A stretch of DNA of 64,000 bases. It comes from a virus (Duplodnaviria; Heunggongvirae; Uroviricota; Caudoviricetes). The stretch lies in the IMG/VR virus record IMGVR_UViG_3300047469_000094; one strand, written 5' to 3'. The notes under the pieces were generated by a model, which did no database searches, was not told the origin of the DNA, and worked only from the letters and a program-made list of their open reading frames with translations. Of this stretch, positions 9,761 to 37,530 are shown in pieces. Position 1 is the stretch's first letter. The number at the start of each line of letters is the position of its first letter. The translations under genes were made by a program, and so were the position numbers.

Positions 9761-11560
9761 TTACGCTGCTTTCGGCAGACTTTCAGTCAGATTCGTACGA
9801 ACCGACACCAACGTTGCTTTGGATAGAACTTGGCTGTTCCGGTACGCACAGTTGAGAACACCGTAATAACCAACGGGTTTCCCTTCGACAGGGATGTACT
9901 CACCAGCCTCATCAAACTCTACGGCCAGCCAGCCTTTGGCAGAGTGCTTACCGGTGTCTGTTTTCGGTGCCTTGTAGACATCGATTTTCAGACCGTTGAC
10001 TTCCCCGTAAGTCAGCTTCATAGCAAAGCCCAGAGAGTCACGGGTGATGTGCTGGATGCTGTAGCTACCGACACCGACCACGATATTCTCTGCGGAGAAG
10101 CCCATTTCCATCAGACGCTGCAAGATAGCTTCGAAGCGTTGGATAGTAATGGAGTCACCGTAGATCAGGCGGATCTTCGGATTCAGCACTTTGTAGCCTT
10201 TGCTGTTCACGGTGCCGCCGAACAGTTCCCACAGCCACTGGATGCTGCCTTTCTCTTCCACGGTCAGGGTAGTAGGTTCGAACTTCGAAACCTTCTTGCC
10301 GTCCATGTAGTAGAACTGCTTGTCACGACGGTTCCACTCGATGTCCACGGTGTAGCGGTACAACTCACCGTTCCAGCGGGCAACGCCAGAAACTTCGGAA
10401 CGGCCAGGTTCGCCGTGTGCGGTTTCATCGTAGACCATCTCGGTTACATAGTCCTTGATCCAGCCTTTGGCATGGTCTTCGGTTTCAGCTTCGGAGCCGA
10501 TTTCGAAGACTTCAACCGTGCCGCAGATGATGTCCTTAGGGACGCCGCTGTCAGGCCGAACTACGAACGGACCCCCTTCACGAGCCAGGATCTTGTCTTT
10601 GAGCAGTGGCAGGCCGTGCTCCAACATACCGAAGTAGTCATAGCTGTCCATCACATAGCTGATAGGACCGACGTTGTCCAAGTAGTCAGAGAGGAAGCTT
10701 ACCTCTGCTTCGAACAAGGAGCAGCCACGCATCACAGCACGCATCTGAATGTTCAGAGTTGTCAGACTGTGTTCGGTAGCCATGATGGAACCGAAGTCAG
10801 CCTTGGTTGCGCCGTATTCGTGCATCGCAGCCAAGCAACCCGGGATGTTATCGGTGCCGGTAAACGCAGACAGCATCGAAGGACCAGTTTTGTAGCCCGC
10901 CCACATGCCAAACAGACCGCGAAGACTGAAGTCGTGGCACTGATACGTTACGTAGCCGTTATCGTCAGCCGTCAGTGCTGCGTACTTCTCTGCAACAATT
11001 CGGTACTCACGAGCAATAGTTGCTACGGTGCAGGCAGGCCACAGTTCGTTACTGAAGTGGTCTTCGGTGTAGCTTGCCAGCCATGCGAAGTCCTCATGGG
11101 TGTTGTCCACCAAGATGATCGGAGTACCCGCCCGTACTACGCGGCCTTCTTCGACTGCGTGAACCTGGATAGGCAGATAACCCAGTTTGTGCAGATCGGA
11201 GTAGATGGTGAGATCTGCGTTCGGAGTAGTTGCTTCTATCAGAGGGCGGATCACGCTCTCAACTTCTTCCCACGAAGCTTCAAAGAATTGGTTCCAGGCA
11301 TGGTTGATGGCATTCAGACCTTGGAGAACCCCCGCGACAACGATCTTACCGTCGTACTTAGAACTGCCTTGGAAGTGCTTGGTGCTACGTGGGGTGAAGT
11401 TACCCTGACCCTTCGTATAGCCTTTCGGGAACAGACCTGGGTGACAAAACTTGTACGCGTCACAGAGGATGGCTGCGTACATCGGAGCCGGAGGGGTTTG
11501 CATACGGGTGATTGCAGGGTATGCGGTGGAGCTTACTGGCGTAGGGATCTGCACTTGCAT
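9761..11560 (-). CDS. nadV: nicotinamide phosphoribosyltransferase (NAMPT/NadV family; could alternatively be a Namat-type enzyme of an NAD reconstitution pathway)
   Basis: 599-aa ORF with NAPRTase-family architecture (AILCDAYKF..., central catalytic region); AAGGAAG RBS. Confidence 0.88.
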   Translation of the reverse strand: MQVQIPTPVSSTAYPAITRMQTPPAPMYAAILCDAYKFCHPGLFPKGYTKGQGNFTPRSTKHFQGSSKYDGKIVVAGVLQGLNAINHAWNQFFEASWEEVESVIRPLIEATTPNADLTIYSDLHKLGYLPIQVHAVEEGRVVRAGTPIILVDNTHEDFAWLASYTEDHFSNELWPACTVATIAREYRIVAEKYAALTADDNGYVTYQCHDFSLRGLFGMWAGYKTGPSMLSAFTGTDNIPGCLAAMHEYGATKADFGSIMATEHSLTTLNIQMRAVMRGCSLFEAEVSFLSDYLDNVGPISYVMDSYDYFGMLEHGLPLLKDKILAREGGPFVVRPDSGVPKDIICGTVEVFEIGSEAETEDHAKGWIKDYVTEMVYDETAHGEPGRSEVSGVARWNGELYRYTVDIEWNRRDKQFYYMDGKKVSKFEPTTLTVEEKGSIQWLWELFGGTVNSKGYKVLNPKIRLIYGDSITIQRFEAILQRLMEMGFSAENIVVGVGSYSIQHITRDSLGFAMKLTYGEVNGLKIDVYKAPKTDTGKHSAKGWLAVEFDEAGEYIPVEGKPVGYYGVLNCAYRNSQVLSKATLVSVRTNLTESLPKAA

Positions 11561-11570
11561 GGATACTTCC

Positions 11571-12410
11571 TTAGTTGGTTTCGCGGGTTACGTTGAGTAC
11601 TTCCAGATTACCTGTGCCCTTGAGATGGCGAATGTAACTGTTAGTGGTGAAAACTTGGTCGTAGATATCGGAAACCACCGGAATCCCCTTTGAGAAAAGA
11701 CCGTGGGTCACTGCAAGGCTTACCGACGTTGCACCTTGGCTTTTCAGGGAGTGAAGCAATGGAACGAAAGTCCCGCAACCATCACCGATATCATCCAGAA
11801 CCAGAAGGGTACGACCTTCGACAGTATCGTTTACACGAGTACCCGAGATAATACCCGTTTCGAGGTCCCGTACTTTGGTGCAGTGAATTACCCCAGCCGC
11901 ACCTACACGTTTAGCGAACATTTCCGCCTTCTTCGCAGCACCGCCATCCGGGGCCGCAATGTAGACTTCTCGCCACGACGAATAGATGTCTTTGAAGATG
12001 TCGTACTGGTTGACAACTTCGAGGCGGTTGAACAGGGCCGGGGTCACTTCACTGTGAGGATCGAGGATCTTCACGTTGACGAAGTTGCAGGCGTTGATCA
12101 GTCGTGCAACGACGGCAATACTCAGAGGCTCACCTGGATTGCATACCCGATCCTGCCGAGCGTACGGCATGTACGGGATAAACGCGGAGATCGCTGCTCG
12201 GGGATACACACGACTAACAGCATCGTGGATCATGATCAGGTTCAGCAGATCACCCTGCGTTGTCAGCCTGGCCACGATCTCTACTTCCATCACTTTTTCA
12301 GGGTAGAGGTTGCCTGTCTGAATCTGTGGCACCACTTCCCCGCCTGGGAAATTGATGTAGCTGACTTCTTCAGTTACGTTGCCGAAACGCAGGTAGATAT
12401 TCTCTTTCAT
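11571..12410 (-). CDS. prs: ribose-phosphate pyrophosphokinase (PRPP synthetase, Prs) or Prs-like ADP-ribose pyrophosphokinase
   Basis: 279-aa ORF; PRPP-binding PRTase motif LLVLDDIGDGCGT and Prs N-terminal fold. Confidence 0.88.
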   Translation of the reverse strand: MKENIYLRFGNVTEEVSYINFPGGEVVPQIQTGNLYPEKVMEVEIVARLTTQGDLLNLIMIHDAVSRVYPRAAISAFIPYMPYARQDRVCNPGEPLSIAVVARLINACNFVNVKILDPHSEVTPALFNRLEVVNQYDIFKDIYSSWREVYIAAPDGGAAKKAEMFAKRVGAAGVIHCTKVRDLETGIISGTRVNDTVEGRTLLVLDDIGDGCGTFVPLLHSLKSQGATSVSLAVTHGLFSKGIPVVSDIYDQVFTTNSYIRHLKGTGNLEVLNVTRETN

Positions 12411-16384: not shown

Positions 16385-17008
16385 ATGTTTTACTTCGGCA
16401 ATATCACCGCTCACGGTGCCGTTTACCTGTATCCAGAGAAGCCCCCTCAAGATTTAATGTGGGTCGATCCAAAAGGCCATACAAATTTCTGGTGCTCAGT
16501 TCTTGGTGATTTATCTGGATCTAGTTCAAGTCCTCGTACTGAGACTCGTGAAACTCTCCCTCGCTCTGGAGAACCCTACAACTGGGTGGCCGGTGAGGCA
16601 GTACATACCCTGACTGGCAAGGTTCGTCTAGAACTGATTCCAAGTTCTGGAAAAGTAATCGTAGGTCAAATCCATGCGTATAAAGCTTCAAACCCATTCC
16701 TGATGGTTACTTGGTGGAATGGGGTTGCCCGAATCGATTTTCGAGAAGTACCTAATGGCCTGACCACTAAGGCTCTTTCAGTGCCGTGCCCTCTAGGAGA
16801 GTCGTTCGAGTACAAGATAGAGATAGATAAGTCAGGGATGCTGACCGTTACGATAAATGGACTTGGTTTTCAAACTCAAGTAAGCCCATTGTGGACTGCG
16901 TTCCCGTTCTACTTTAAAGCCGGTGCATATGTGATAGACAATTCTGGTCCGGAAACAGAAGGCGGCTGGGTAGTCTATGAAAACTTTGAAGTCTCTCACT
17001 TAAGCTAA
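16385..17008 (+). CDS. polysaccharide lyase family 7 (alginate lyase-like) protein
   Basis: PL7 signature blocks RTETRE (RxExR), QIHAY (QIH), YFKAGAYVID (YFKAGxY) in 207-aa ORF. Confidence 0.65.
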   Translation: MFYFGNITAHGAVYLYPEKPPQDLMWVDPKGHTNFWCSVLGDLSGSSSSPRTETRETLPRSGEPYNWVAGEAVHTLTGKVRLELIPSSGKVIVGQIHAYKASNPFLMVTWWNGVARIDFREVPNGLTTKALSVPCPLGESFEYKIEIDKSGMLTVTINGLGFQTQVSPLWTAFPFYFKAGAYVIDNSGPETEGGWVVYENFEVSHLS

Positions 17009-18283: not shown

Positions 18284-18616
18284 TCAGAGTATATCGAATT
18301 CCGGACGACCAAGACCTACCGACACTTGGTCCCTGCGAAGAGTGAGCTTCTTCCTAACACTCAACACCGAAAGGTCTCCGATGTAAGAGCCCTTATCGAA
18401 TCCAAACCGACGAGCACCAGAGTAATGGGTCCCTGGGTATTCCTCCCTCTTTCTGGCAAACTCTTCGATCAGAAACTTGGTATGACTAACGGTTTCGTCA
18501 CTCAGACCCGGATCTGCTGACTCGATCCAGATACTCCCAATGTCTGCACCTCGACTAAACAAGGCCTCCATGAAATCGTAAAACTGCATAAATTTCTCCC
18601 AAAAGAAAACCCGCAC
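18284..18616 (-). CDS. small protein, same family (array 1)
   Basis: ...MQFYDFMEALFSRGADIG...; ORF-track start is GTG 18616, likelier ATG 18589 (GGGAGA RBS). Confidence 0.55.
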   Translation of the reverse strand: MRVFFWEKFMQFYDFMEALFSRGADIGSIWIESADPGLSDETVSHTKFLIEEFARKREEYPGTHYSGARRFGFDKGSYIGDLSVLSVRKKLTLRRDQVSVGLGRPEFDIL

Positions 18617-18632
18617 TAGGCGGGTTCATTTA
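18611..18632 (-). terminator. rho-independent terminator hairpin
   Basis: AACCCGC-ACTA-GCGGGTT hairpin flanked by T/A runs. Confidence 0.45.
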
Positions 18633-18762
18633 CCTGGGAGTGGTCCCAGACTCTTCCAAACTTGTTGTTCTTTACAAAGACGTCTACTCGTATTTTCTTC
18701 TTACCGTACCTGCGAGTAGTTCGACAATCACCGTAAGTTCTCTTAGAACCATAGGGCAGCAT
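18616..18762 (-). CDS. hypothetical small basic protein (~48 aa)
   Basis: Hand-translated MLPYGSKRTYGDCRTTRRYGKKKIRVDVFVKNNKF...; GAGGTG RBS; below ORF-track cutoff. Confidence 0.25.
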   Translation of the reverse strand: MLPYGSKRTYGDCRTTRRYGKKKIRVDVFVKNNKFGRVWDHSQVNEPA

Positions 18763-18770
18763 GGCACACC

Positions 18771-19148
18771 TCAAATCAGTTTACCGAAACTAAGTACCCA
18801 TCTACTGCCCTCCTCGATAGGAGTAACGTAGTGGTACGAATCATCAGCACGGAACAGGAACATCTTCCTCCAAGACCAGATCGTCTTATTGCATACGAAC
18901 TGTCCACCCTTCTTAGCCGAGACCAGTTCTATGTTGAACCGGTACAGCTTCTTGCCTTTAGAAGGGTCTTTGTGTTTGGGGATATACGATCCAGTCTTGT
19001 AGTGGAACAGATAACAATCAAAGCCCAGTCGCTTACTAAAAGCTAGGGTGAAGATTCGATATCCAGTGTCGTGGACATCGCTACCCCAGCGCCATAAACG
19101 AAGTGTGGGCTTGGTGAGCTTGCGGGTCTATACGGATTTAGGATGCAT
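18771..19148 (-). pseudogene. 2OG-Fe(II) oxygenase-like gene interrupted by in-frame amber codon at codon 7 (pseudogene or read-through)
   Basis: ATG 19148 with GGAGA RBS gives MHPKSV-TAG-TRKL..HYKTGSYIPKHKD..SYHYV..RWVLSF..; HxD, H and RxS motifs retained; no alternative start after the TAG. Confidence 0.35.
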
Positions 19149-19245
19149 GGTATTTCTCCTGGGTTGGAACTGGTGGATCTACCCGGACACGATCCGGGAG
19201 CCGTGTCTTTTAGAGGGACTGGCCGACCATCTAGATCCGAAAGAG

Positions 19246-19650
19246 TTACTTGACCAAACGTAGACCTGGTCGTTGCTTAGGTTCTTCAGGTTCTACTACT
19301 CCACCCTCAACCGGCTCCGGTGCCGCAGGGACCGCCTGTGCTACTTCGAACACGACCCCTTGACCTGTCTGCCGGGAGTAGATACCTGCGATAGACCCCA
19401 TAGGGACCCAGAGGTCGTGCAGAACACCCTTGAAGGCGGCAGTGAAGGAGATCTTCTCATTATCCATGACCAGTTCCCGGGTTGCACCCATGGAAATGTT
19501 CAGAACAATCTGCCCGTCGGTATCCTTTTCTTCTGGGACAACTACCCCAGGATAATTCGTATGCACGAGAATGTGTACGTCGTGGTCGTTATCTGCGATC
19601 CACTCGTAGATGCCACGGAGTAGGTACGGACGGCTATCGGTCATGCTCAT
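19246..19650 (-). CDS. sspB: SspB-like ClpXP specificity-enhancing adaptor
   Basis: RPYLLRGIYEWIADN, GQIVLNIS and C-terminal ClpX-binding tail RPGLRLVK, closely paralleling E. coli SspB (RPYLLRAFYEW...GQIVLNI...RPALRVVK). Confidence 0.85.
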   Translation of the reverse strand: MSMTDSRPYLLRGIYEWIADNDHDVHILVHTNYPGVVVPEEKDTDGQIVLNISMGATRELVMDNEKISFTAAFKGVLHDLWVPMGSIAGIYSRQTGQGVVFEVAQAVPAAPEPVEGGVVEPEEPKQRPGLRLVK

Positions 19651-19673
19651 GGATATTATCCTTGTATCAAAAG

Positions 19674-19761
19674 TGGAGGCGGGTCAGGGATTCAAACCCT
19701 GGGGGCCGTTAGACCCGGCTGATTTCAAGTCAGCTACAATCGTTCACTCTGTCAACCCGCC
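19674..19761 (-). tRNA. tRNA-Ser (anticodon TGA), class II with long variable arm, CCA encoded
   Basis: Acceptor GGCGGGT/ACCCGCC, anticodon stem GCTGA/TCAGC loop CTTGAAA, 15-nt variable arm, T-arm CAGGG-TTTGAAT-CCCTG, T+CCA. Confidence 0.85.
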
Positions 19762-19932
19762 GAAAAAGTGACGTTATTTCAAACGTCGAGAGAACATAGT
19801 TGATCAAACTACCGGAGAGGGTCTGCAACAACAGGACTCTGAACCGCCTGCCTGGTAGTACCCGACTTACCGTTGTTCTAACTAGGGACACCGTTTCCGC
19901 AATCGCAGATAAACAACGGTATCATCACTGCT

Positions 19933-20151
19933 TTAGTCGAAGTCTATGATGTCACCGATCACATCAAAGATCCCTTCGACAATCTCACCGAAGTTAGTAG
20001 ACGTCATTACTCGTCTGCTCTCTAACCGCTGTCTTCCTGCTTCTACCTCCGCAGGAGACATCTGAGTTATATCCCATATTAACTTACATTCCTTACAATC
20101 CGCAGTTGGAGCCTGCGTTGCCTCGTAAGTAGGGTGTTTAGAGCACTTCAT
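19933..20151 (-). CDS. hypothetical small Cys-containing protein
   Basis: 72-aa ORF. Confidence 0.45.
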   Translation of the reverse strand: MKCSKHPTYEATQAPTADCKECKLIWDITQMSPAEVEAGRQRLESRRVMTSTNFGEIVEGIFDVIGDIIDFD

Positions 20152-20248
20152 GTGAGTACCTTGATTGGTGGGCCGTAGGTGAATTGAACACCTATCCGAG
20201 ACTTATGAGGTCCACGCATTGAACCACTATGCTAACGGCCCGTAAAGC

Positions 20249-20461
20249 TTAGGCGTTGCCAGTACGACAGGCATCGATCTTCAAATTCTCAACAACGCCA
20301 ATACCTTGGCCGAAGGTCAGACTGCCACAGGTGTTACCGCGAGAATAAACTACGGTGATTACTGATTTAGGATCGTAGCCTACCTGAGATAGGATCATCT
20401 CGTAGGTAAGCTTTTCACCTTCTTCGAATTCATAGTCCTTACAGTTGATCAAAACTTTCAT
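20249..20461 (-). CDS. hypothetical small protein
   Basis: 70-aa ORF. Confidence 0.45.
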   Translation of the reverse strand: MKVLINCKDYEFEEGEKLTYEMILSQVGYDPKSVITVVYSRGNTCGSLTFGQGIGVVENLKIDACRTGNA

Positions 20462-20488
20462 TGCGAGTACCCGTTGAGGATTAGTCCG

Positions 20489-20785
20489 TCAACTGTAATT
20501 CACATGATAGTCATAGTCAATACTCAGCAAGTAATCTTTGTCATTGCCGGTGATGTACTTGAACAGTACCGGTACGTGCGCCTCGATAAGCCGCATCCAC
20601 TTCGAGTCGAATGCAATGCACTCAAGGTCTATGAGTTTGATCCCGACGTGGAAATACCCATCCATGTCTTCCTTCATATCTGCCAAGGCTTGTTCATCAG
20701 TGATGCTTGGTGAGTTGGTGAACACGATCTTAATCGTCTGACCTTCTCCTTGGCCGGAGTAGTCGTATACTAGAACTGATTTCAT
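20489..20785 (-). CDS. hypothetical protein
   Basis: 98-aa ORF. Confidence 0.5.
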   Translation of the reverse strand: MKSVLVYDYSGQGEGQTIKIVFTNSPSITDEQALADMKEDMDGYFHVGIKLIDLECIAFDSKWMRLIEAHVPVLFKYITGNDKDYLLSIDYDYHVNYS

Positions 20786-20985
20786 TCAATGTCCTTTGGC
20801 AAGTATGCCCAGTGACTGTAACAAATACGGTAATCAAGAAGGTGTTCGAGGGTCACAATAGACCATCTTTTTCTGCCCTTTTCCCAAACTACTAAATTAC
20901 CCCAGCGGTCACAGTCCTGCAACCGAGGTAACTCTTCGTCAATCGATGCGGCTATCGGAACTATCTGCATCTTTCCTCCAAACAT
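20782..20985 (-). CDS. hypothetical small protein
   Basis: 67-aa ORF. Confidence 0.4.
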   Translation of the reverse strand: MFGGKMQIVPIAASIDEELPRLQDCDRWGNLVVWEKGRKRWSIVTLEHLLDYRICYSHWAYLPKDIE

Positions 20986-21190
20986 AACTACGATGACGAC
21001 TACGTCCTTTAGCCACGCTGGCTTGTTTGCGTTCCCGTTTACAGCTCTTTGGTGGAACTACGTGTACCCATTCCTTAGGAATCTCCACAATCTTTCCACG
21101 GCGCTTACGGTACGTCTTTCCCTCCACTTTTAGAAACATAGACAAGTCCTTGTTTTGATAGGCAAATAGAAAGGGCCCCGAAGGGCCCAA
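20939..21190 (-). CDS. hypothetical basic protein
   Basis: 83-aa ORF; 5' end overlaps terminator hairpin, true start may be internal. Confidence 0.35.
   Translation of the reverse strand: MGPSGPFLFAYQNKDLSMFLKVEGKTYRKRRGKIVEIPKEWVHVVPPKSCKRERKQASVAKGRSRHRSYVWRKDADSSDSRID
21173..21188 (-). terminator. rho-independent terminator (GGGCCC-UUCG-GGGCCC then UUUCUAUUU on minus strand)
   Basis: Perfect 6-7-bp GC hairpin with UUCG-type loop immediately 3' of tRNA-like element. Confidence 0.5.
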
Positions 21191-21253
21191 TGGCAGGATT
21201 CGAACCTGCGACTCACCAAAGTTGGTGTGCTCTACCAGTTGAGCTACATTCCT
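21186..21253 (-). tRNA. tRNA-like element, non-canonical (clear D-arm and T-arm; aberrant acceptor pairing and 6-bp/short-loop anticodon-like hairpin with TTT); possible pseudo-tRNA
   Basis: Minus strand AGGAATG-TA-GCTCAACTGGTAGAGC-A-CACCAACTTTGGTG..-GCAGGTTCGAATCCTGC-CATTGGG; own promoter (21265) and terminator (21173). Confidence 0.4.
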
Positions 21254-21264
21254 TCTACACAGTC

Positions 21265-21273
21265 CTTATACCA
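21265..21273 (-). promoter_or_regulatory. extended -10-like promoter element (minus strand TGGTATAAG)
   Basis: Located ~12 nt upstream of the 5' end of tRNA-like element. Confidence 0.4.
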
Positions 21274-21829
21274 GGACTTTGTCCCGTACAGGAATACCTG
21301 CGTTGACGTAGATCTCCATGACTTCTTCGACCGTATCGCAGAGCGACTCTTCGAATGTCATAGTGAAGCTCGGGGCCTTGGCAATAAGCTCAGGTCGAGG
21401 GTAATACTTACGGCTCTTCGTATACGGGAACTCGATGTAGCAGGTAGTCTGCTTACCGCCACCCGTGTACGTCCAGCCATCAGGATCAACACCGATATAA
21501 CCTTCGATGTCGTAGGCCTTACCTTCGTCGTCTTTGAACACCGCAGAGTATCGCTTGTTTTGCCACATGGCGGGACCTACTTCACTCCACTCAGAGTCTT
21601 CGCCAGTAAGAGGGGTAAGGTTCTCTTGCAGAGCACACTTCCTAACCAGGTTAAGGAAAGGACCAATACTTCCACCAGAGTGGCCTTGCTCTGAAATGAC
21701 CTGGACGACCTGAAGAACATCTCGGGTCATCATCTTCTGCCATTCTAGGTCAGAAGGGTCTTCAGCTTGTTTTTCAAGAAGCTCAAGCTCGATACGAGCG
21801 AGGCGAACGGAGTTGCTTTCAGTTGACAT
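21266..21829 (-). CDS. hypothetical protein
   Basis: 187-aa ORF. Confidence 0.55.
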   Translation of the reverse strand: MSTESNSVRLARIELELLEKQAEDPSDLEWQKMMTRDVLQVVQVISEQGHSGGSIGPFLNLVRKCALQENLTPLTGEDSEWSEVGPAMWQNKRYSAVFKDDEGKAYDIEGYIGVDPDGWTYTGGGKQTTCYIEFPYTKSRKYYPRPELIAKAPSFTMTFEESLCDTVEEVMEIYVNAGIPVRDKVLV

Positions 21830-22038
21830 ATGAATGCCCTAACTTTTCCATCGGGGGTACAGCGAAACCCGACCCACCACCAATCAGTTCTTACGAACAG
21901 ACGACCTTCGTTAAGGCCAATGGCAATGGGTCGGAACATACGGTTGTTTTGATCCATAGGGATCATTGTGAGTTTCATTGTTCTAACTCGTAGGCTCGTT
22001 GGAAGTCCTTCACAAGAAGAGAAACAAAACCTCTGCAC
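21745..22038 (-). CDS. hypothetical protein
   Basis: 97-aa ORF overlapping neighbours; uncertain. Confidence 0.35.
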   Translation of the reverse strand: MQRFCFSSCEGLPTSLRVRTMKLTMIPMDQNNRMFRPIAIGLNEGRLFVRTDWWWVGFRCTPDGKVRAFICQLKATPFASLVSSLSFLKNKLKTLLT

Positions 22039-22229
22039 TGATCTTGGTACTCAAGGTTGTCAGTGTACAAGTCTACCGATTCCAAGTAAGCGTACTCTTC
22101 ACCGGTTGCTTCTTTTAGTGCGTCCTGCAAAGCTCCGAAGATACTGTCTCCGTCTTTTACTCTGCAGGTACCGAGGTAGCGGTCAGAACTACTCGATATT
22201 GCGTTAAAAGCAAATACTATTTCAGTCAT
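21975..22229 (-). CDS. hypothetical small protein
   Basis: 84-aa ORF. Confidence 0.5.
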   Translation of the reverse strand: MTEIVFAFNAISSSSDRYLGTCRVKDGDSIFGALQDALKEATGEEYAYLESVDLYTDNLEYQDQCRGFVSLLVKDFQRAYELEQ

Positions 22230-22249
22230 GTACTGTGCTCTTAGTTAAA

Positions 22250-22335
22250 TGGCTCCGGGAGCTGGGGTCGAACCAGCAGTGTAATTAAACGCTTGGTTAA
22301 CAGCCAAGTGGGGTTGCCAATTTGCCTATCCCGGA
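22250..22335 (-). tRNA. tRNA-Asn (anticodon GTT)-like, CCA encoded, unusually long (14-nt) variable region and weak D-stem
   Basis: Acceptor TCCGGGA/TCCCGGA, anticodon stem CTTGG/CCAAG loop CTGTTAA, T-arm GCTGG-TTCGACC-CCAGC, G+CCA. Confidence 0.6.
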
Positions 22336-22340
22336 ATATA

Positions 22341-22422
22341 TGGTGGAGAGTAATGGAATCGAACCACTTCTACTTTCGAACAGCGTTTACAGCGCCGCGC
22401 ATTCCCAATCTGCCAACTCTCC
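22341..22422 (-). tRNA. tRNA-Tyr (anticodon GTA), class II, CCA encoded
   Basis: Acceptor GGAGAGT/ACTCTCC, anticodon stem CGGCG/CGCTG loop CTGTAAA, 12-nt variable arm, T-arm AGTGG-TTCGATT-CCATT, A+CCA. Confidence 0.8.
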
Positions 22423-22517
22423 GTAAAACAAAGCAAGAGAAACGTTCGTAGAGGTTTATATCTGTCTCCCTCTCGGATTTACTTCTCAGAGTCCGGCTTT
22501 CACTCTTGCCTTATAAC

Positions 22518-22602
22518 TGGTGCGGAAAGAGAGATTCAAACTCTCACGCCTTTCGGCAAAAGGACCTAAGCCTTTCGTGTCTGTCGATTCCACCATATCC
22601 GC
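22518..22602 (-). tRNA. tRNA-Leu (anticodon TAG), class II, CCA encoded
   Basis: Acceptor GCGGATA/TTTCCGC (one mismatch), anticodon stem AAAGG/CCTTT loop CTTAGGT, V-arm GCC-GAAA-GGC, T-arm GAGAG-TTTGAAT-CTCTC, A+CCA. Confidence 0.75.
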
Positions 22603-27360: not shown

Positions 27361-27777
27361 CTATTGCGTTGATACCACCCCGGACGGGACGGAAACGTAA
27401 GCACCTTCGGTAAGAATCTCAGAGATCATCTCTGGGATCAACTCCTTCAAGTTCTTGTCCATGCCGTACCAATGAGTGCAGTGAAGCAGTCGAAGACGGT
27501 TCAGAGTGTGCTTAGTGTCAACTGTGGATAACTTGAGGAAATCAACCGCCTCCGTTACCTCGCAAATACTGAAGAATGAACTGCGGAACATCTTGTCCAG
27601 CTTCATCTTCACTAGCGCAACGTCAAACGGGTCATGATCGTCGAGAAAAACTAAGCGGTCCACCGTGCTCTGCTTACGAGCAATAACTCGCGTACCGTAG
27701 GTAGAAACCTCTGTCTTAGGCTGTACAAACTTAGACAGAAAAGTCATCAAAGCACCCTTCTCTTGTAGCTCACTCAT
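27361..27777 (-). CDS. hypothetical protein (N-terminal MTFLSKF motif, family-like)
   Basis: 138-aa ORF. Confidence 0.5.
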   Translation of the reverse strand: MSELQEKGALMTFLSKFVQPKTEVSTYGTRVIARKQSTVDRLVFLDDHDPFDVALVKMKLDKMFRSSFFSICEVTEAVDFLKLSTVDTKHTLNRLRLLHCTHWYGMDKNLKELIPEMISEILTEGAYVSVPSGVVSTQ

Positions 27778-28304
27778 CTCATATTCCTCTTGTAATCACC
27801 ACGAACAGCGTCAACACCGTTGTACTCAACGAAGATCACTTCCTCGCCTTCCAGCTCTTCGTCGATGATTGCAGAAATGATCCGCCAGTCACCGCCAGCA
27901 CGAGCAGCTCCAATCGCAGGCACACCGAAGGACTTGCCTTGATTACCGTAGTCCGGCTTCAACTGCCTGAACACAGATCGCAACGCATCGTAGTCACAGA
28001 GAACACCCTTGCCGTACCAGTGGAACTGGGTATAGGCATTGATGATCGTACCTAAAAAGACTCCACGACGAACACCGTCTGAGTTTCGGAGATCCCGGTA
28101 GATATCTGCGTGGGTGTACGTCCCCAACTTCGTTTTGTCGAAACGAACCGTACGGCAATCCGCCTCGTAAGCTTCCGGGTATTTCTCCTTGATAGTCCTA
28201 GCAATGCCATCGCCCATGTTATTACCACAGTTACAACCGTGGACGATTACGTCGAAGTCACCTTCGCTGAAGCCTAGGATCAAATCGCCTTTAACGTGTT
28301 TCAT
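27774..28304 (-). CDS. macro-domain (ADP-ribose-binding/processing) protein
   Basis: IVHGCNCGNNMGDGIARTI and GVPAIGAARAGGDW blocks typical of MacroD/YmdB-type macro domains. Confidence 0.75.
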   Translation of the reverse strand: MKHVKGDLILGFSEGDFDVIVHGCNCGNNMGDGIARTIKEKYPEAYEADCRTVRFDKTKLGTYTHADIYRDLRNSDGVRRGVFLGTIINAYTQFHWYGKGVLCDYDALRSVFRQLKPDYGNQGKSFGVPAIGAARAGGDWRIISAIIDEELEGEEVIFVEYNGVDAVRGDYKRNMR

Positions 28305-30937: not shown

Positions 30938-32602
30938 TTATGCAGCCATTGGGGCCCGTCCAAATTTGTCAACCATAAGTATTTCTACTTCTGGCTGAGT
31001 TATTCCTCGGTGGACGGTCGCCACTTGCTTCCAGTTGATACCAGCTTCAACGTCGATGCGGATAGGGAAATCCATCCACTCAAACGTTTCCACCAGCAAA
31101 TCCTCCATCACATAGAAAGCAGTGTTTATCGCCTCTGCCATCCGGTGATACGGGACCTCAATAGCCAGCGAGTCATACACCGTGGTAAGGACCTTTGCAC
31201 CCATTGGTTTAACGGCTTCGTTGAGCTTGGAGAAACCGTAAAGACCTGTAACGGCAGAGCTGCTCTGACAACGAACGTTCTGTGAGTTACGTAGGGCCGC
31301 GTTGTATACCGCAGTCTTGCGAAAGATATTCATTGCTCCGAATTCTTTCTTAGACTGACCGTACATATTCATGACGTAGTTATTAGCCTTCGCCATTGCG
31401 TGTGAATCGTTTACGTACACTTCGATCAACGGGAACTCTTTGAAGTACATCGCAATAAGGCGGGTAGCCTCTTGCTCAGTAATGTTCAGGGTATGAGCAA
31501 TGCCTCTGACGCTAGATCCGTAGAGGATTCCAAAAGTTAGAGATTTTGCCCCTTGACGCAGGGCTTTAAATCGTTTTTTAAGAGCCAGGATAGCGGGATC
31601 ACTACCCTCGTAGTTGACGTGGAAAACCATCTCATCGTAGTCCACCCCATGCATCTGAGATGCGGAGTACGAATGGAAATCCTTGCCTTCCGCAACCGCC
31701 CTTAACAATTTTGGATCTCGGCATAGGAATGCCAGCATAACTACTTCTGCACCTGACTGATCCAGGCACAGGAATAGATTCCCAGGATCTACGGTGTAGC
31801 ACTGCTTGATACTGTACCCTAACTTGTTTTCAGTCTGGGTGTTAGGAATCTGAGTCATATTCGGGAACTGACCAGACGGCCTGAACGACGAAGTACCAAA
31901 CAACGAATAGCTACTGTGAACCCTACCATCACTCTTGACGAAATCAGGGATATACGTCTTGAAAAAAGTATTGTACACAGAATTAACGTTGTTCCGTCGG
32001 GCTAAGACCTTCAACCAATCCAGGTTATGAGTCTCAGCTAAAGCACTTAACGCATCACCATCAACGCTCGGCTCGTTCTTCTTGGTGTAGCTAGGAGGCT
32101 CAAAACCAAGATCCCCATAGAGAATCTTTACCAGTTCTTTGCCACTATCCGGATTGAACTTCGACCCAAACAAGGTGAAGATCTCATCTTCAAGTCGTGG
32201 CAACTCCTCCTCAATCTGAGCACACTGCTTCCTATTAAGGTCGCAATCGTACTTAATCCCATTGATCTCCATGTCGATTAAGAACTCGTGAGCAGGCATT
32301 TCTACCTGCTCCATGAAGTCTAGGATGGCTGGGGCTGACCGAACTTCCTGAACCCCCTGCGTGTAGTACATATACGGTTTCCGCTCAACCACCTTGGGGA
32401 ATACTGCGTTCAGTACCCCCGTTGTCGCCAAGCAGTCAACACCAGCATACTGGTAGAGATCCTCCGGAGGGAAGTCCTCATACGTGTTGTATACCGGTGC
32501 TTCTTCTTTTACTGCGACAGACTTTCCCATCCGTTTGTCCTCGATGGCTCCCCTGAGGAGAACCCTATTTCTGTAAACTCTGCGTCGGGCGTAGTTATCC
32601 AC
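30938..32602 (-). CDS. family A DNA polymerase, polymerase-domain subunit (carries Exo III-like motif and pol motifs A, B, C)
   Basis: YAGVDCLAT (Exo III-like Yx3D), motif A DQSGAEVVMLAF, motif B RQGAKSLTFGILYGSS, motif C VYDSLAIEV. Confidence 0.88.
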   Translation of the reverse strand: MDNYARRRVYRNRVLLRGAIEDKRMGKSVAVKEEAPVYNTYEDFPPEDLYQYAGVDCLATTGVLNAVFPKVVERKPYMYYTQGVQEVRSAPAILDFMEQVEMPAHEFLIDMEINGIKYDCDLNRKQCAQIEEELPRLEDEIFTLFGSKFNPDSGKELVKILYGDLGFEPPSYTKKNEPSVDGDALSALAETHNLDWLKVLARRNNVNSVYNTFFKTYIPDFVKSDGRVHSSYSLFGTSSFRPSGQFPNMTQIPNTQTENKLGYSIKQCYTVDPGNLFLCLDQSGAEVVMLAFLCRDPKLLRAVAEGKDFHSYSASQMHGVDYDEMVFHVNYEGSDPAILALKKRFKALRQGAKSLTFGILYGSSVRGIAHTLNITEQEATRLIAMYFKEFPLIEVYVNDSHAMAKANNYVMNMYGQSKKEFGAMNIFRKTAVYNAALRNSQNVRCQSSSAVTGLYGFSKLNEAVKPMGAKVLTTVYDSLAIEVPYHRMAEAINTAFYVMEDLLVETFEWMDFPIRIDVEAGINWKQVATVHRGITQPEVEILMVDKFGRAPMAA

Positions 32603-36171: not shown

Positions 36172-37530
36172 TTATTCGTCGCATTCCCCCACCTCCTCTT
36201 CCTCGGACTCTTCTTCGCCTTCAACCACCTTCTTCCTCTTGGTCAGGGCAGGGAGCTTGTCTTCGTACCCGCCAAGACCACTCTCAGGTAAGAAGTCCCA
36301 GACAGCCTTCTTCAGACTGTAGTTGTTCTTCAACCCAGAGTTGATCGCGTGCAGTAACAGCAACGTATCGAACGCAGCGTTAACCACACGGACACCGGTA
36401 GTAACGAAGGTGTAAATGATATCGAACTTGATGTTGTGACCAACCTTAGGTCGTTGAGACAGAAGCAATTCTGCAATCAACGGCCAAGCTTCGTTTGAAT
36501 CGTAGAAGTTGTTGGCCCTGTGCCACAGAGGGAATACCAATGCCTTAATCACGCCATCCGCAGGGTCCGTGTATCCGAACTGAGCAGTGATGATCTTTGC
36601 GTTAGCCGCCCAGGCATCAAGGCTCGTCGTCTCCAAGTCGAAGCTGATGATCTTGTTCGCCGGAAGGTCGTTAAGGATCTTGATCATGGCTCTGACGTCA
36701 GTCATAGATCGAGCAATGGTGATCCGAGTTGAAGCTTCGGCCAGAGCATCGTCAAGACTTACTACCTTCAGGTCGCCACGAGCAATCCGTGCAGCCTTAG
36801 CGAAGTCACGATCAAGGACTTCGAAGTAGTCCGGACCCCATTCTTTACCTGAGGCATTCTGACGGATCATCGTCAAGGACTTAGGGTGGAGAGTGATCAC
36901 CGCAGTACCGTAGTCAGTCGTGTGGAATTCACCACGGTTAGACGAACAGGTGGCCTTGATACCCAGAGCACTGATCGAGTTCGTAGACATCACGATGATC
37001 GCCTTAGGCTTGATCCTGCGAAGTTCCTCGTGAAGGTAGGGAGTACATGGTTTGATCTTGGTGGTTGTCACGGTTTGACCCCGAAGGTCAGACGCTTGCG
37101 GCAAGCACTTAAGAGTACTGACTACGGCGTAGCTCAACCGTTGAAAATATTTCTGAGCCAGGAAGCCAATGATGTCCCGGTAGATACGCTCCATTTCATC
37201 AGAGGATTTGTACATCTGGGCTAAAGCGTTGTGGTCCTGAACTATGACGATATCGACCTGTTGAGTGGTCAAAGTCACTTGTTTAGGACGACGACTGGAT
37301 GGGCACAGACCACAGGCCGAGTTGCAGTACCGATCCTGGATCTTGGAGAAGTCTTCCTTCTCGATGATCTGCTTCCGGATCGAAGGCATCATCTTCCCGA
37401 TCTCGGCTGCCTTGGCGTACAGCTCGTCCAAGCTCAGCTCGTTCGTCTTCTTGGCTCTTGGTTTCTTAACTTTTCCGGATGGGGTGGCCGTATCTCCCAG
37501 GCCCCCGATCGGTTTGAAGTTAGTAGACAT
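36172..37530 (-). CDS. DNA polymerase N-terminal subunit: UDG-superfamily-like domain fused to 3'-5' exonuclease (Exo I and Exo II motifs)
   Basis: Exo I ISFDLETTSLD, Exo II HNIKFDIIY; upstream half has family-4-UDG-like blocks (KCLP, TLHPKS); acidic C-terminal tail; no Exo III in this ORF. Confidence 0.8.
   Translation of the reverse strand: MSTNFKPIGGLGDTATPSGKVKKPRAKKTNELSLDELYAKAAEIGKMMPSIRKQIIEKEDFSKIQDRYCNSACGLCPSSRRPKQVTLTTQQVDIVIVQDHNALAQMYKSSDEMERIYRDIIGFLAQKYFQRLSYAVVSTLKCLPQASDLRGQTVTTTKIKPCTPYLHEELRRIKPKAIIVMSTNSISALGIKATCSSNRGEFHTTDYGTAVITLHPKSLTMIRQNASGKEWGPDYFEVLDRDFAKAARIARGDLKVVSLDDALAEASTRITIARSMTDVRAMIKILNDLPANKIISFDLETTSLDAWAANAKIITAQFGYTDPADGVIKALVFPLWHRANNFYDSNEAWPLIAELLLSQRPKVGHNIKFDIIYTFVTTGVRVVNAAFDTLLLLHAINSGLKNNYSLKKAVWDFLPESGLGGYEDKLPALTKRKKVVEGEEESEEEEVGECDE

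Follow-up and report, generated by a model that had tools for sequence, protein, structure and literature searches.

The 134-amino-acid open reading frame at 19246..19650 (minus strand) of the window, by which we mean the whole 64,000-nucleotide stretch of DNA analysed, is a clear homologue of the ClpXP adaptor SspB with the full three-part layout: a substrate-binding domain (residues 1-101; 19348..19650, minus strand), a flexible linker (residues 102-126, EVAQAVPAAPEPVEGGVVEPEEPKQ; 19273..19347, minus strand) and a ClpX-binding (XB) tail, RPGLRLVK-COOH (residues 127-134; 19249..19272, minus strand). On balance we think it probable that this gene, here called sspB, codes for a functional adaptor of the SspB family, produced by the phage in the infected cell, since the predicted fold, the intact tail, a linker of natural length, purifying selection and synteny argue for it.

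The coding sequence starts with the ATG at 19650-19648 and ends with a TAA at 19246-19248. The JGI gene call for an identical protein (P0001) starts at the second ATG and gives 132 amino acids; we favour the first ATG because of the placement of a Shine-Dalgarno sequence, AAGGA (19659..19663, minus strand), read from the sequence 8 nt before it, and an MSM(M)TDS start is retained in the orthologues of sspB. Directly upstream, 23 nt before the start of sspB, ARAGORN located a tRNA-Ser(UGA) gene (19674..19761, minus strand). An overlapping plus-strand ORF of 116 amino acids (19273..19623) was rejected as an antisense shadow of sspB. Scans for promoters and terminators rendered counts no higher than those of shuffled sequence, and an Rfam E-value scan of positions 18500-19300 gave no meaningful match.

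An earlier note, made from the letters of the DNA without database searches, had claimed a close likeness to E. coli SspB, and formal searches bear this out with significant matches. These include Pfam PF04386 (SspB; E=8.3e-29, 101.1 bits against a gathering score of 27, residues 6-113), PHROG 8945 'stringent starvation protein SspB-like' (E=5.5e-19, residues 9-105), and PDB chains of H. influenzae and E. coli SspB (E=6e-27 to 8e-24, residues 3-106), as well as the structural matches found with Foldseek. The motifs that the note had singled out are all in place: RPYLLRGIYEW corresponds to RPYLLRAFYEW and GQIVLNIS to GQIVLNI of E. coli SspB, the reference sequence of which was checked residue for residue against PDB 8et3_Y, and the ClpX-docking tail RPGLRLVK, the counterpart of RPALRVVK in SspB, stands at the extreme C-terminus. 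Nine NCBIfam SspB models (NF008762-NF008770) match at E=1e-17 to 1e-42, but the score stays below the equivalog cut-off in all nine, the best being 142.6 against 191 (NF008764) and the closest 127.5 against 135 (NF008769). Judged by these scores, phage SspB is a member of the family and no equivalog of any curated bacterial subgroup. PHROG files the SspB-like family under 'moron, auxiliary metabolic gene and host takeover'.

An AlphaFold2 model of phage SspB, obtained from a 43-sequence alignment, has a pLDDT of 82.5 overall and of 89-96 over residues 11-100. It contains a helix at residues 7-20 (19591-19632) followed by a beta-sandwich, with seven strands, and residues 102-134 are disordered in it. 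When the model was compared with the PDB by Foldseek, the top 13 matches were all gammaproteobacterial SspB chains, with target-normalised TM scores of 0.82-0.92, and the rmsd to 1ou9, 1ou8, 1ox9, 1yfn and 8et3 was 0.7-1.9 A; the more distant alphaproteobacterial SspB orthologues come next in the list. The N-terminal helix, which in solved structures of SspB makes up the dimer interface, is thus present in the predicted structure, and its conserved residues P8, Y9, L10, R12, W17, D20 and N21 are found in phage SspB.

The linker has a pLDDT of 48-62 without secondary structure and contains 6 Glu and 5 Pro in 25 residues, in agreement with the acidic or Pro-rich flexible linker of the earlier note. 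Its length corresponds to the 21st percentile of 123 representative SspBs with an XB-like end (minimum 17, median 38). The tail, assigned by motif match and by identity among orthologues, fits the XB motif P-x-L-[KR]-[VLI]-[VI]-K-COOH, which is invariant or nearly so across the SspB alignment; the C-terminal motif L-[RK]-[VLI]-[VI]-K-COOH is found in 125 of 152 aligned SspBs and in all phage copies examined. Replacement of the last eight residues of Pseudomonas aeruginosa SspB by Ala weakened ClpX binding from 27 nM to 179 nM (PMC13251409).

Related phage contigs carry the gene as well. Orthologues 81% (P0002, contig L011) and 70% identical (P0004, contigs L006 and L007) are located at the same locus, another (P0003) is 78% identical, and a 116-kb IMG/VR contig (L013) has a 48% identical copy, again at the same locus, next to a helicase (76% identical to that of the window) and an alginate lyase (87%). 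The tRNA-Ser(UGA) gene adjoins sspB upstream in L011 as in the window, and also stands upstream of it in L013, the order at 765..1905 of L013 being tRNA-Met, tRNA-Ser(tga), tRNA-Ser(gct), sspB and tRNA-Arg(tct). The dN/dS ratio (Nei-Gojobori) is 0.11 against P0002 and 0.16 against P0004, with dS above 1, so that sspB is under purifying selection and has been maintained at one locus in this phage lineage. Conservation is unevenly distributed along the protein: identity to P0002, P0003 and P0004 is 89, 83 and 75% in the domain and 44-48% (11-12 of 25 residues) in the linker, and the XB tail is identical in all three (8 of 8 residues). This combination, in which the leash varies while domain and tail are preserved, is the textbook SspB pattern and the one expected of a working SspB.

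In the window sspB is found within a phage tRNA cluster (19674..22602, minus strand). This placement could mean co-transcription with a translation-support module, or the cluster could simply be a hot spot of gene insertion.

Phage loci of this kind appear to be rare in the collections searched. An alignment-based scan of 2.9 million IMG/VR contigs rendered only four SspB loci, one of them being that of Pseudomonas phage pf16 itself; a single-sequence pattern scan of IMG/VR found none. Several tblastn matches labelled as phage, including Acinetobacter 'phage' MD-2021a and Salmonella and Ralstonia YO records, turned out to be bacterial sspA-sspB loci or unannotated fragments, the Salmonella one being a Salmonella enterica genome record within the phage collection, and were left out of the count of phage carriage. 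In a neighbour-joining tree the window clade, two further phage-borne copies (P0005 and P0008) and pf16 group together with a bootstrap of 15/100, and with that support the idea of a common phage SspB clade was dropped. The nearest named bacterial SspB is that of Stutzerimonas (P0009), 49% identical.

That the copy is borne by a phage, as the earlier note had claimed, is confirmed by the gene content of the window, which is phage DNA: it includes genes for a nicotinamide phosphoribosyltransferase (NAMPT), a PRPP synthase, PhoH, a SNF2-type helicase, a primase, a second helicase and a PD-(D/E)XK nuclease, together with six tRNAs detected by ARAGORN and one more by Rfam. The latter is a tRNA-like match at 21189..21250 (minus strand; 42.6 bits, model positions 4-67) that is absent from the ARAGORN calls; a GC-rich, terminator-like hairpin (21188..21173) abuts it. 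JGI metagenome contigs of 97-165 kb carry the sequence too. The phage has no close cultured relative: a megablast of 6 kb around sspB against 50,697 phage records gave no match, and the identity of its polymerase and primase to those of Salmonella phage Arash and Vibrio phage D69 is only 29-42%. Its family-A DNA polymerase is encoded in two ORFs (30938..32602 and 36172..37530, minus strand) about 3.5 kb apart, and the four ORFs between them have no Pfam match; the match to Arash, the nearest relative, is likewise in two pieces.

Some of the neighbouring genes may act against host defence. A Tad3 homologue of 187 amino acids (21266..21829, minus strand), located 1.6 kb upstream of sspB, matches PF25185 (type I Thoeris inhibitor; E=6.2e-31, 107 bits against a cut-off of 27). 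The genes for the 599-amino-acid nicotinamide phosphoribosyltransferase and a 279-amino-acid ribose-phosphate pyrophosphokinase are adjacent (9761..12410, minus strand), and we take this pair to be a phage NAD+ reconstitution pathway that counters NAD-depleting defence. A 176-amino-acid ORF (27774..28304, minus strand) has a borderline match to the Macro domain (22.1 bits against a cut-off of 22, E=1.5e-4) and could encode an ADP-ribose-processing enzyme; it is situated in a region rich in NAD-related counter-defence genes. A Tad2-like gene was also seen near the SspB of a T4-like contig (L008).

At 2.2 kb from sspB there is a gene for a PL7 alginate lyase (16385..17008, plus strand; PF08787, E=6.6e-34). 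Pseudomonas phages account for 11 of the 12 phage records containing its relatives, the best being phiK7A1 (70%), and these relatives point, at the level of sequence, to an alginate-producing Pseudomonas as the host. Because of these matches, and because the nearest named bacterial SspB comes from Stutzerimonas, the host is probably a Pseudomonas. In bacteria alginate is under the control of SspB by way of MucA/AlgU (PMC13251409); that the lyase gene is close to sspB could be either meaningful or not.

The stretch directly downstream of sspB contains a frame of 125 codons (18771..19148, minus strand) in which an ATG and a leader of five to six codons (MHPKSV) are followed by an in-frame TAG at 19128-19130 and then by 118 codons. 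This 118-codon body matches phrog_13746, of unknown function (E=4.5e-37), with weak hints of a cupin or 2OG-oxygenase. Leader, TAG and body are conserved in L011 and L013, and the block is missing from L006; 36 of the 44 substitutions relative to L013 fall at third codon positions of the minus-strand frame. After the TAG, a canonical start is not met before the last 30 codons; in the rest of the window TAG serves as a normal stop, and the window contains no suppressor tRNA. The arrangement of this interrupted frame suggests local readthrough, reinitiation or a non-canonical start. A 71-amino-acid ORF called by JGI on the other strand (18831..19046, plus strand) was rejected as probably wrong, given that stop codons interrupt it in L013 and that the substitutions fit the minus-strand frame.

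Compared with bacterial SspB (E. coli and H. influenzae; 1OX9, 1OU8, 1YFN, 8ET3), phage SspB has a domain 41-48% identical and shares the fold, the N-terminal helix, the disordered linker and an XB tail ending in L-R-x-V-K, whereas its linker has 25 residues versus 53 in E. coli. The genomic setting also differs: bacterial sspB directly follows sspA, which encodes a GST-like protein, near rplM-rpsI (loci L002 and L005), and the phage gene stands alone after tRNA-Ser, with no sspA upstream. The closest counterpart in length and layout is P. aeruginosa SspB, the MucA/AlgU adaptor, with 135 residues, disorder over residues 99-135 and a tail at R128-K135 (PMC13251409), almost equal to the 134 residues and the arrangement of phage SspB; the Pseudomonas-type tail is RPSLKVVK in place of RPGLRLVK. 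P. aeruginosa R70 (E. coli R75) corresponds to Ala in phage SspB, and R91/E92, the modelled contact with AlgU, to R93/Q94. The replacement of the AlgU-contact Glu by Gln in the window clade is a lead, bearing in mind that the contact comes from an AlphaFold3 model of which only the AlgU side was put to the test, where the effects were 2- to 4-fold (PMC13251409).

Phage SspB is already known as a kind, from PHROG 8945, pf16 gp18, Erwinia phage RAY gp039 and Ralstonia jumbo phages; what is newly seen here is an SspB in a previously undescribed phage lineage with distinctive substitutions. The gp18 protein of pf16 was described as SspB-like in 2017 (PMC5587285). It has 128 amino acids, a short linker, an intact tail (KPTLRVVK) and, as in the window copy, Ala at the position of R75 (F-T-A-A-F), with 54.6% identity over residues 2-98 (tblastn) or 54 of 101 domain residues in a global alignment; unlike the window copy, it keeps T27, P28, F45 and E97. 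The phage pf16 is T4-like and its replication module differs from that of the window phage, and a tmRNA was found in neither. RAY gp039, reported in 2023 as an SspB homologue that is cytoplasmic and lies outside the phage nucleus (bioRxiv 10.1101/2023.02.24.529968), and gp93 of Ralstonia jumbo phage FLC1-1B, an SspB homologue with the tail FLSVVK, 43% identity and a separate branch in the tree, are jumbo-phage proteins more distant from the window copy, and are probably independent acquisitions. The Ssp system of phosphorothioate modification also has an 'SspB', but only the name coincides and it was set aside as unrelated. A precedent is Gp53 of Bacillus phage SPO1, an adaptor-like modulator of ClpCP (PMC6873191), which, as proposed for phage SspB, takes over the choice of substrates by a host Clp protease at the adaptor level, but has no sequence relationship to it, acts on ClpC and not on ClpX, and is no homologue of a host adaptor. 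No functional study of a phage-borne SspB was found in the literature searched. More generally, T4 PinA and lambda CIII are phage proteins that inhibit or redirect host proteases.

If phage SspB is a working adaptor, it would dimerise, the tail of each subunit would dock on the N-terminal zinc-binding domain of host ClpX, and the folded domain would hold a short peptide tag of a cargo protein; cargo tethered in this way would be degraded by ClpXP more rapidly and at lower concentrations. As cargo, the incomplete host proteins carrying the ssrA (tmRNA) tag would be most likely; these should accumulate as a lytic phage disrupts host mRNA and translation, and clearing them faster would return amino acids for reuse and send the tagged proteins to ClpXP. 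The cytoplasmic anti-sigma fragment of the envelope-stress pathway (RseA in E. coli, MucA-AlgU in Pseudomonas), also among the cargo of bacterial SspB, would be a second candidate. Several observations count against an adaptor of this kind: the changed residues discussed below, the NCBIfam scores under the cut-offs, the lack in the window of a tmRNA (ARAGORN, Rfam) and, in a six-frame scan of the window, of ssrA-like (AAND-x-N-Y) or ...LAA-COOH degrons, and the fact that SspB in excess can hinder degradation instead of promoting it (PMC10659297).

The residues of the domain were compared with those of 148 non-redundant SspB representatives (clustered at 50%) plus E. coli SspB, 149 in all, and changes are cited in E. 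coli numbering. Phage SspB retains 24 of the 29 columns conserved at >=85% in this set, the five near-invariant ones that have changed being A16G, T27D, P28V, R75A and E97Q. Position 75 is Arg in 90-98% of bacterial sequences and Ala in none, and position 97 is Glu in 98-100% and Gln in none. In addition, phage SspB has Lys at position 45, where 128 of the 149 representatives have Tyr, Phe or His and only one has Lys. To locate ssrA-proximal and dimer-interface positions, engineered PDB constructs were used: 1twb, in which SspB is disulfide-linked to the ssrA tag, carries Y44C, equivalent to E. coli Y45, and 1zsz_B, a designed heterodimer, carries A15S, Y16L and V101A, equivalent to E. coli positions 16, 17 and 102, at which E. 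coli SspB has A16, F17 and T102 and phage SspB has G13, I14 and V99. A16 and residue 102 are placed in the dimer interface because they were redesigned in that heterodimer. T27, P28, R75 and E97 probably lie in the dimer interface or the ssrA groove, because only those two surfaces are strongly conserved in SspB (PMC9963277).

Since residues that are near-invariant in bacteria have been replaced, the cargo of phage SspB may differ from the canonical one, and as several of the replaced residues in the window clade are surface residues, the affinity for cargo or its choice has probably been retuned relative to the host adaptor. A stronger form of this idea is that phage SspB docks on ClpX and delivers, through its altered surface, a different cargo to ClpXP, candidates being a defence protein of the host, a regulator, or an early protein of the phage due for timed removal. 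We regard such retargeting as unlikely, though deserving of attention. It would account for the changes at five of 29 near-invariant columns and at the ssrA-proximal Y45 in the window clade, for the persistence of these substitutions under purifying selection, and for the recurrent loss of R75, which is missing from six of ten phage-borne copies (window, P0002, P0004, pf16 gp18, P0008 and L013), changed conservatively to Lys in one more (P0003), and missing from about 10% of the representative SspBs; the counter-defence neighbours, Tad3 and the NAMPT/PRPP synthase pair, are also consistent with it. However, at least five deviations are found in 8.7% of the representatives, by which measure phage SspB is divergent but not extreme, and it retains most of the columns of the groove and core (N54, A59, F72, A74, F76 and L53). 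Nor are the changes universal in phage copies, given that P0004 and P0005 keep Tyr or Phe at position 45 and that Arg is kept at position 75 in P0005, L014 and FLC1-1B gp93. A related and comparably improbable possibility is that of a lineage with a remodelled cargo surface (Y45K, R75A, E97Q, T27D/P28V), in which the ClpX leash has been kept and ssrA quality control given up, the protein either delivering a specific host protein, for instance a defence factor or regulator, or blocking the SspB-dependent release of AlgU/sigma-E and thereby alginate production in infected Pseudomonas.

It could also be that phage SspB is not an adaptor but a decoy, which we consider decidedly doubtful. Here, abundant phage protein would fill the ClpX N-domains with its tails, or sequester tags without handing them off, blocking host adaptors and substrates that depend on the N-domain; this could protect phage proteins from ClpXP, and in a variant of the idea the anti-sigma fragment could be spared and the sigma-E/AlgU envelope-stress (alginate) response held off. 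The perfect conservation of the tail while cargo-facing residues drift, with E97 changed to Gln in all four window-clade proteins, would fit such a role, as would the alginate lyase gene 2.2 kb away in the same phage; moreover, the inhibition of degradation by excess SspB was seen in vivo (PMC10659297) and competitive inhibition at RseA was proposed by the authors who described pf16 (PMC5587285). A pure blocker of ClpX would need the tail only, yet the whole folded domain is under purifying selection (89% identity to P0002), and the AlgU contact invoked by the variant is the modelled one mentioned above.

Finally, that sspB is an inert passenger, either a host gene recently captured without a role in infection or a piece of bacterial DNA, is highly improbable in spite of SspB being a bacterial family and of several 'phage' database matches being really bacterial sspA-sspB loci: the nearest bacterial homologues are about 50% identical, there is no sspA upstream, phage genes and tRNAs flank the gene, and the synteny of orthologues 48-81% identical, which occupy this locus in four phage contigs related to the window, together with a dN/dS of 0.11-0.16 indicative of purifying selection, effectively refutes it.

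The gene is complete and selectively maintained, and its natural variants, 48-81% identical, include some with and some without the unusual substitutions. Natural substitutions at otherwise invariant SspB positions could help to engineer orthogonal SspB/ssrA degron or optogenetic pairs. For phage biology, the set of sspB genes offers an entry point to two ways of using the host protease during takeover: the faster clearance of tmRNA-tagged proteins, as expected of a working adaptor, versus the re-aiming or jamming of ClpXP.
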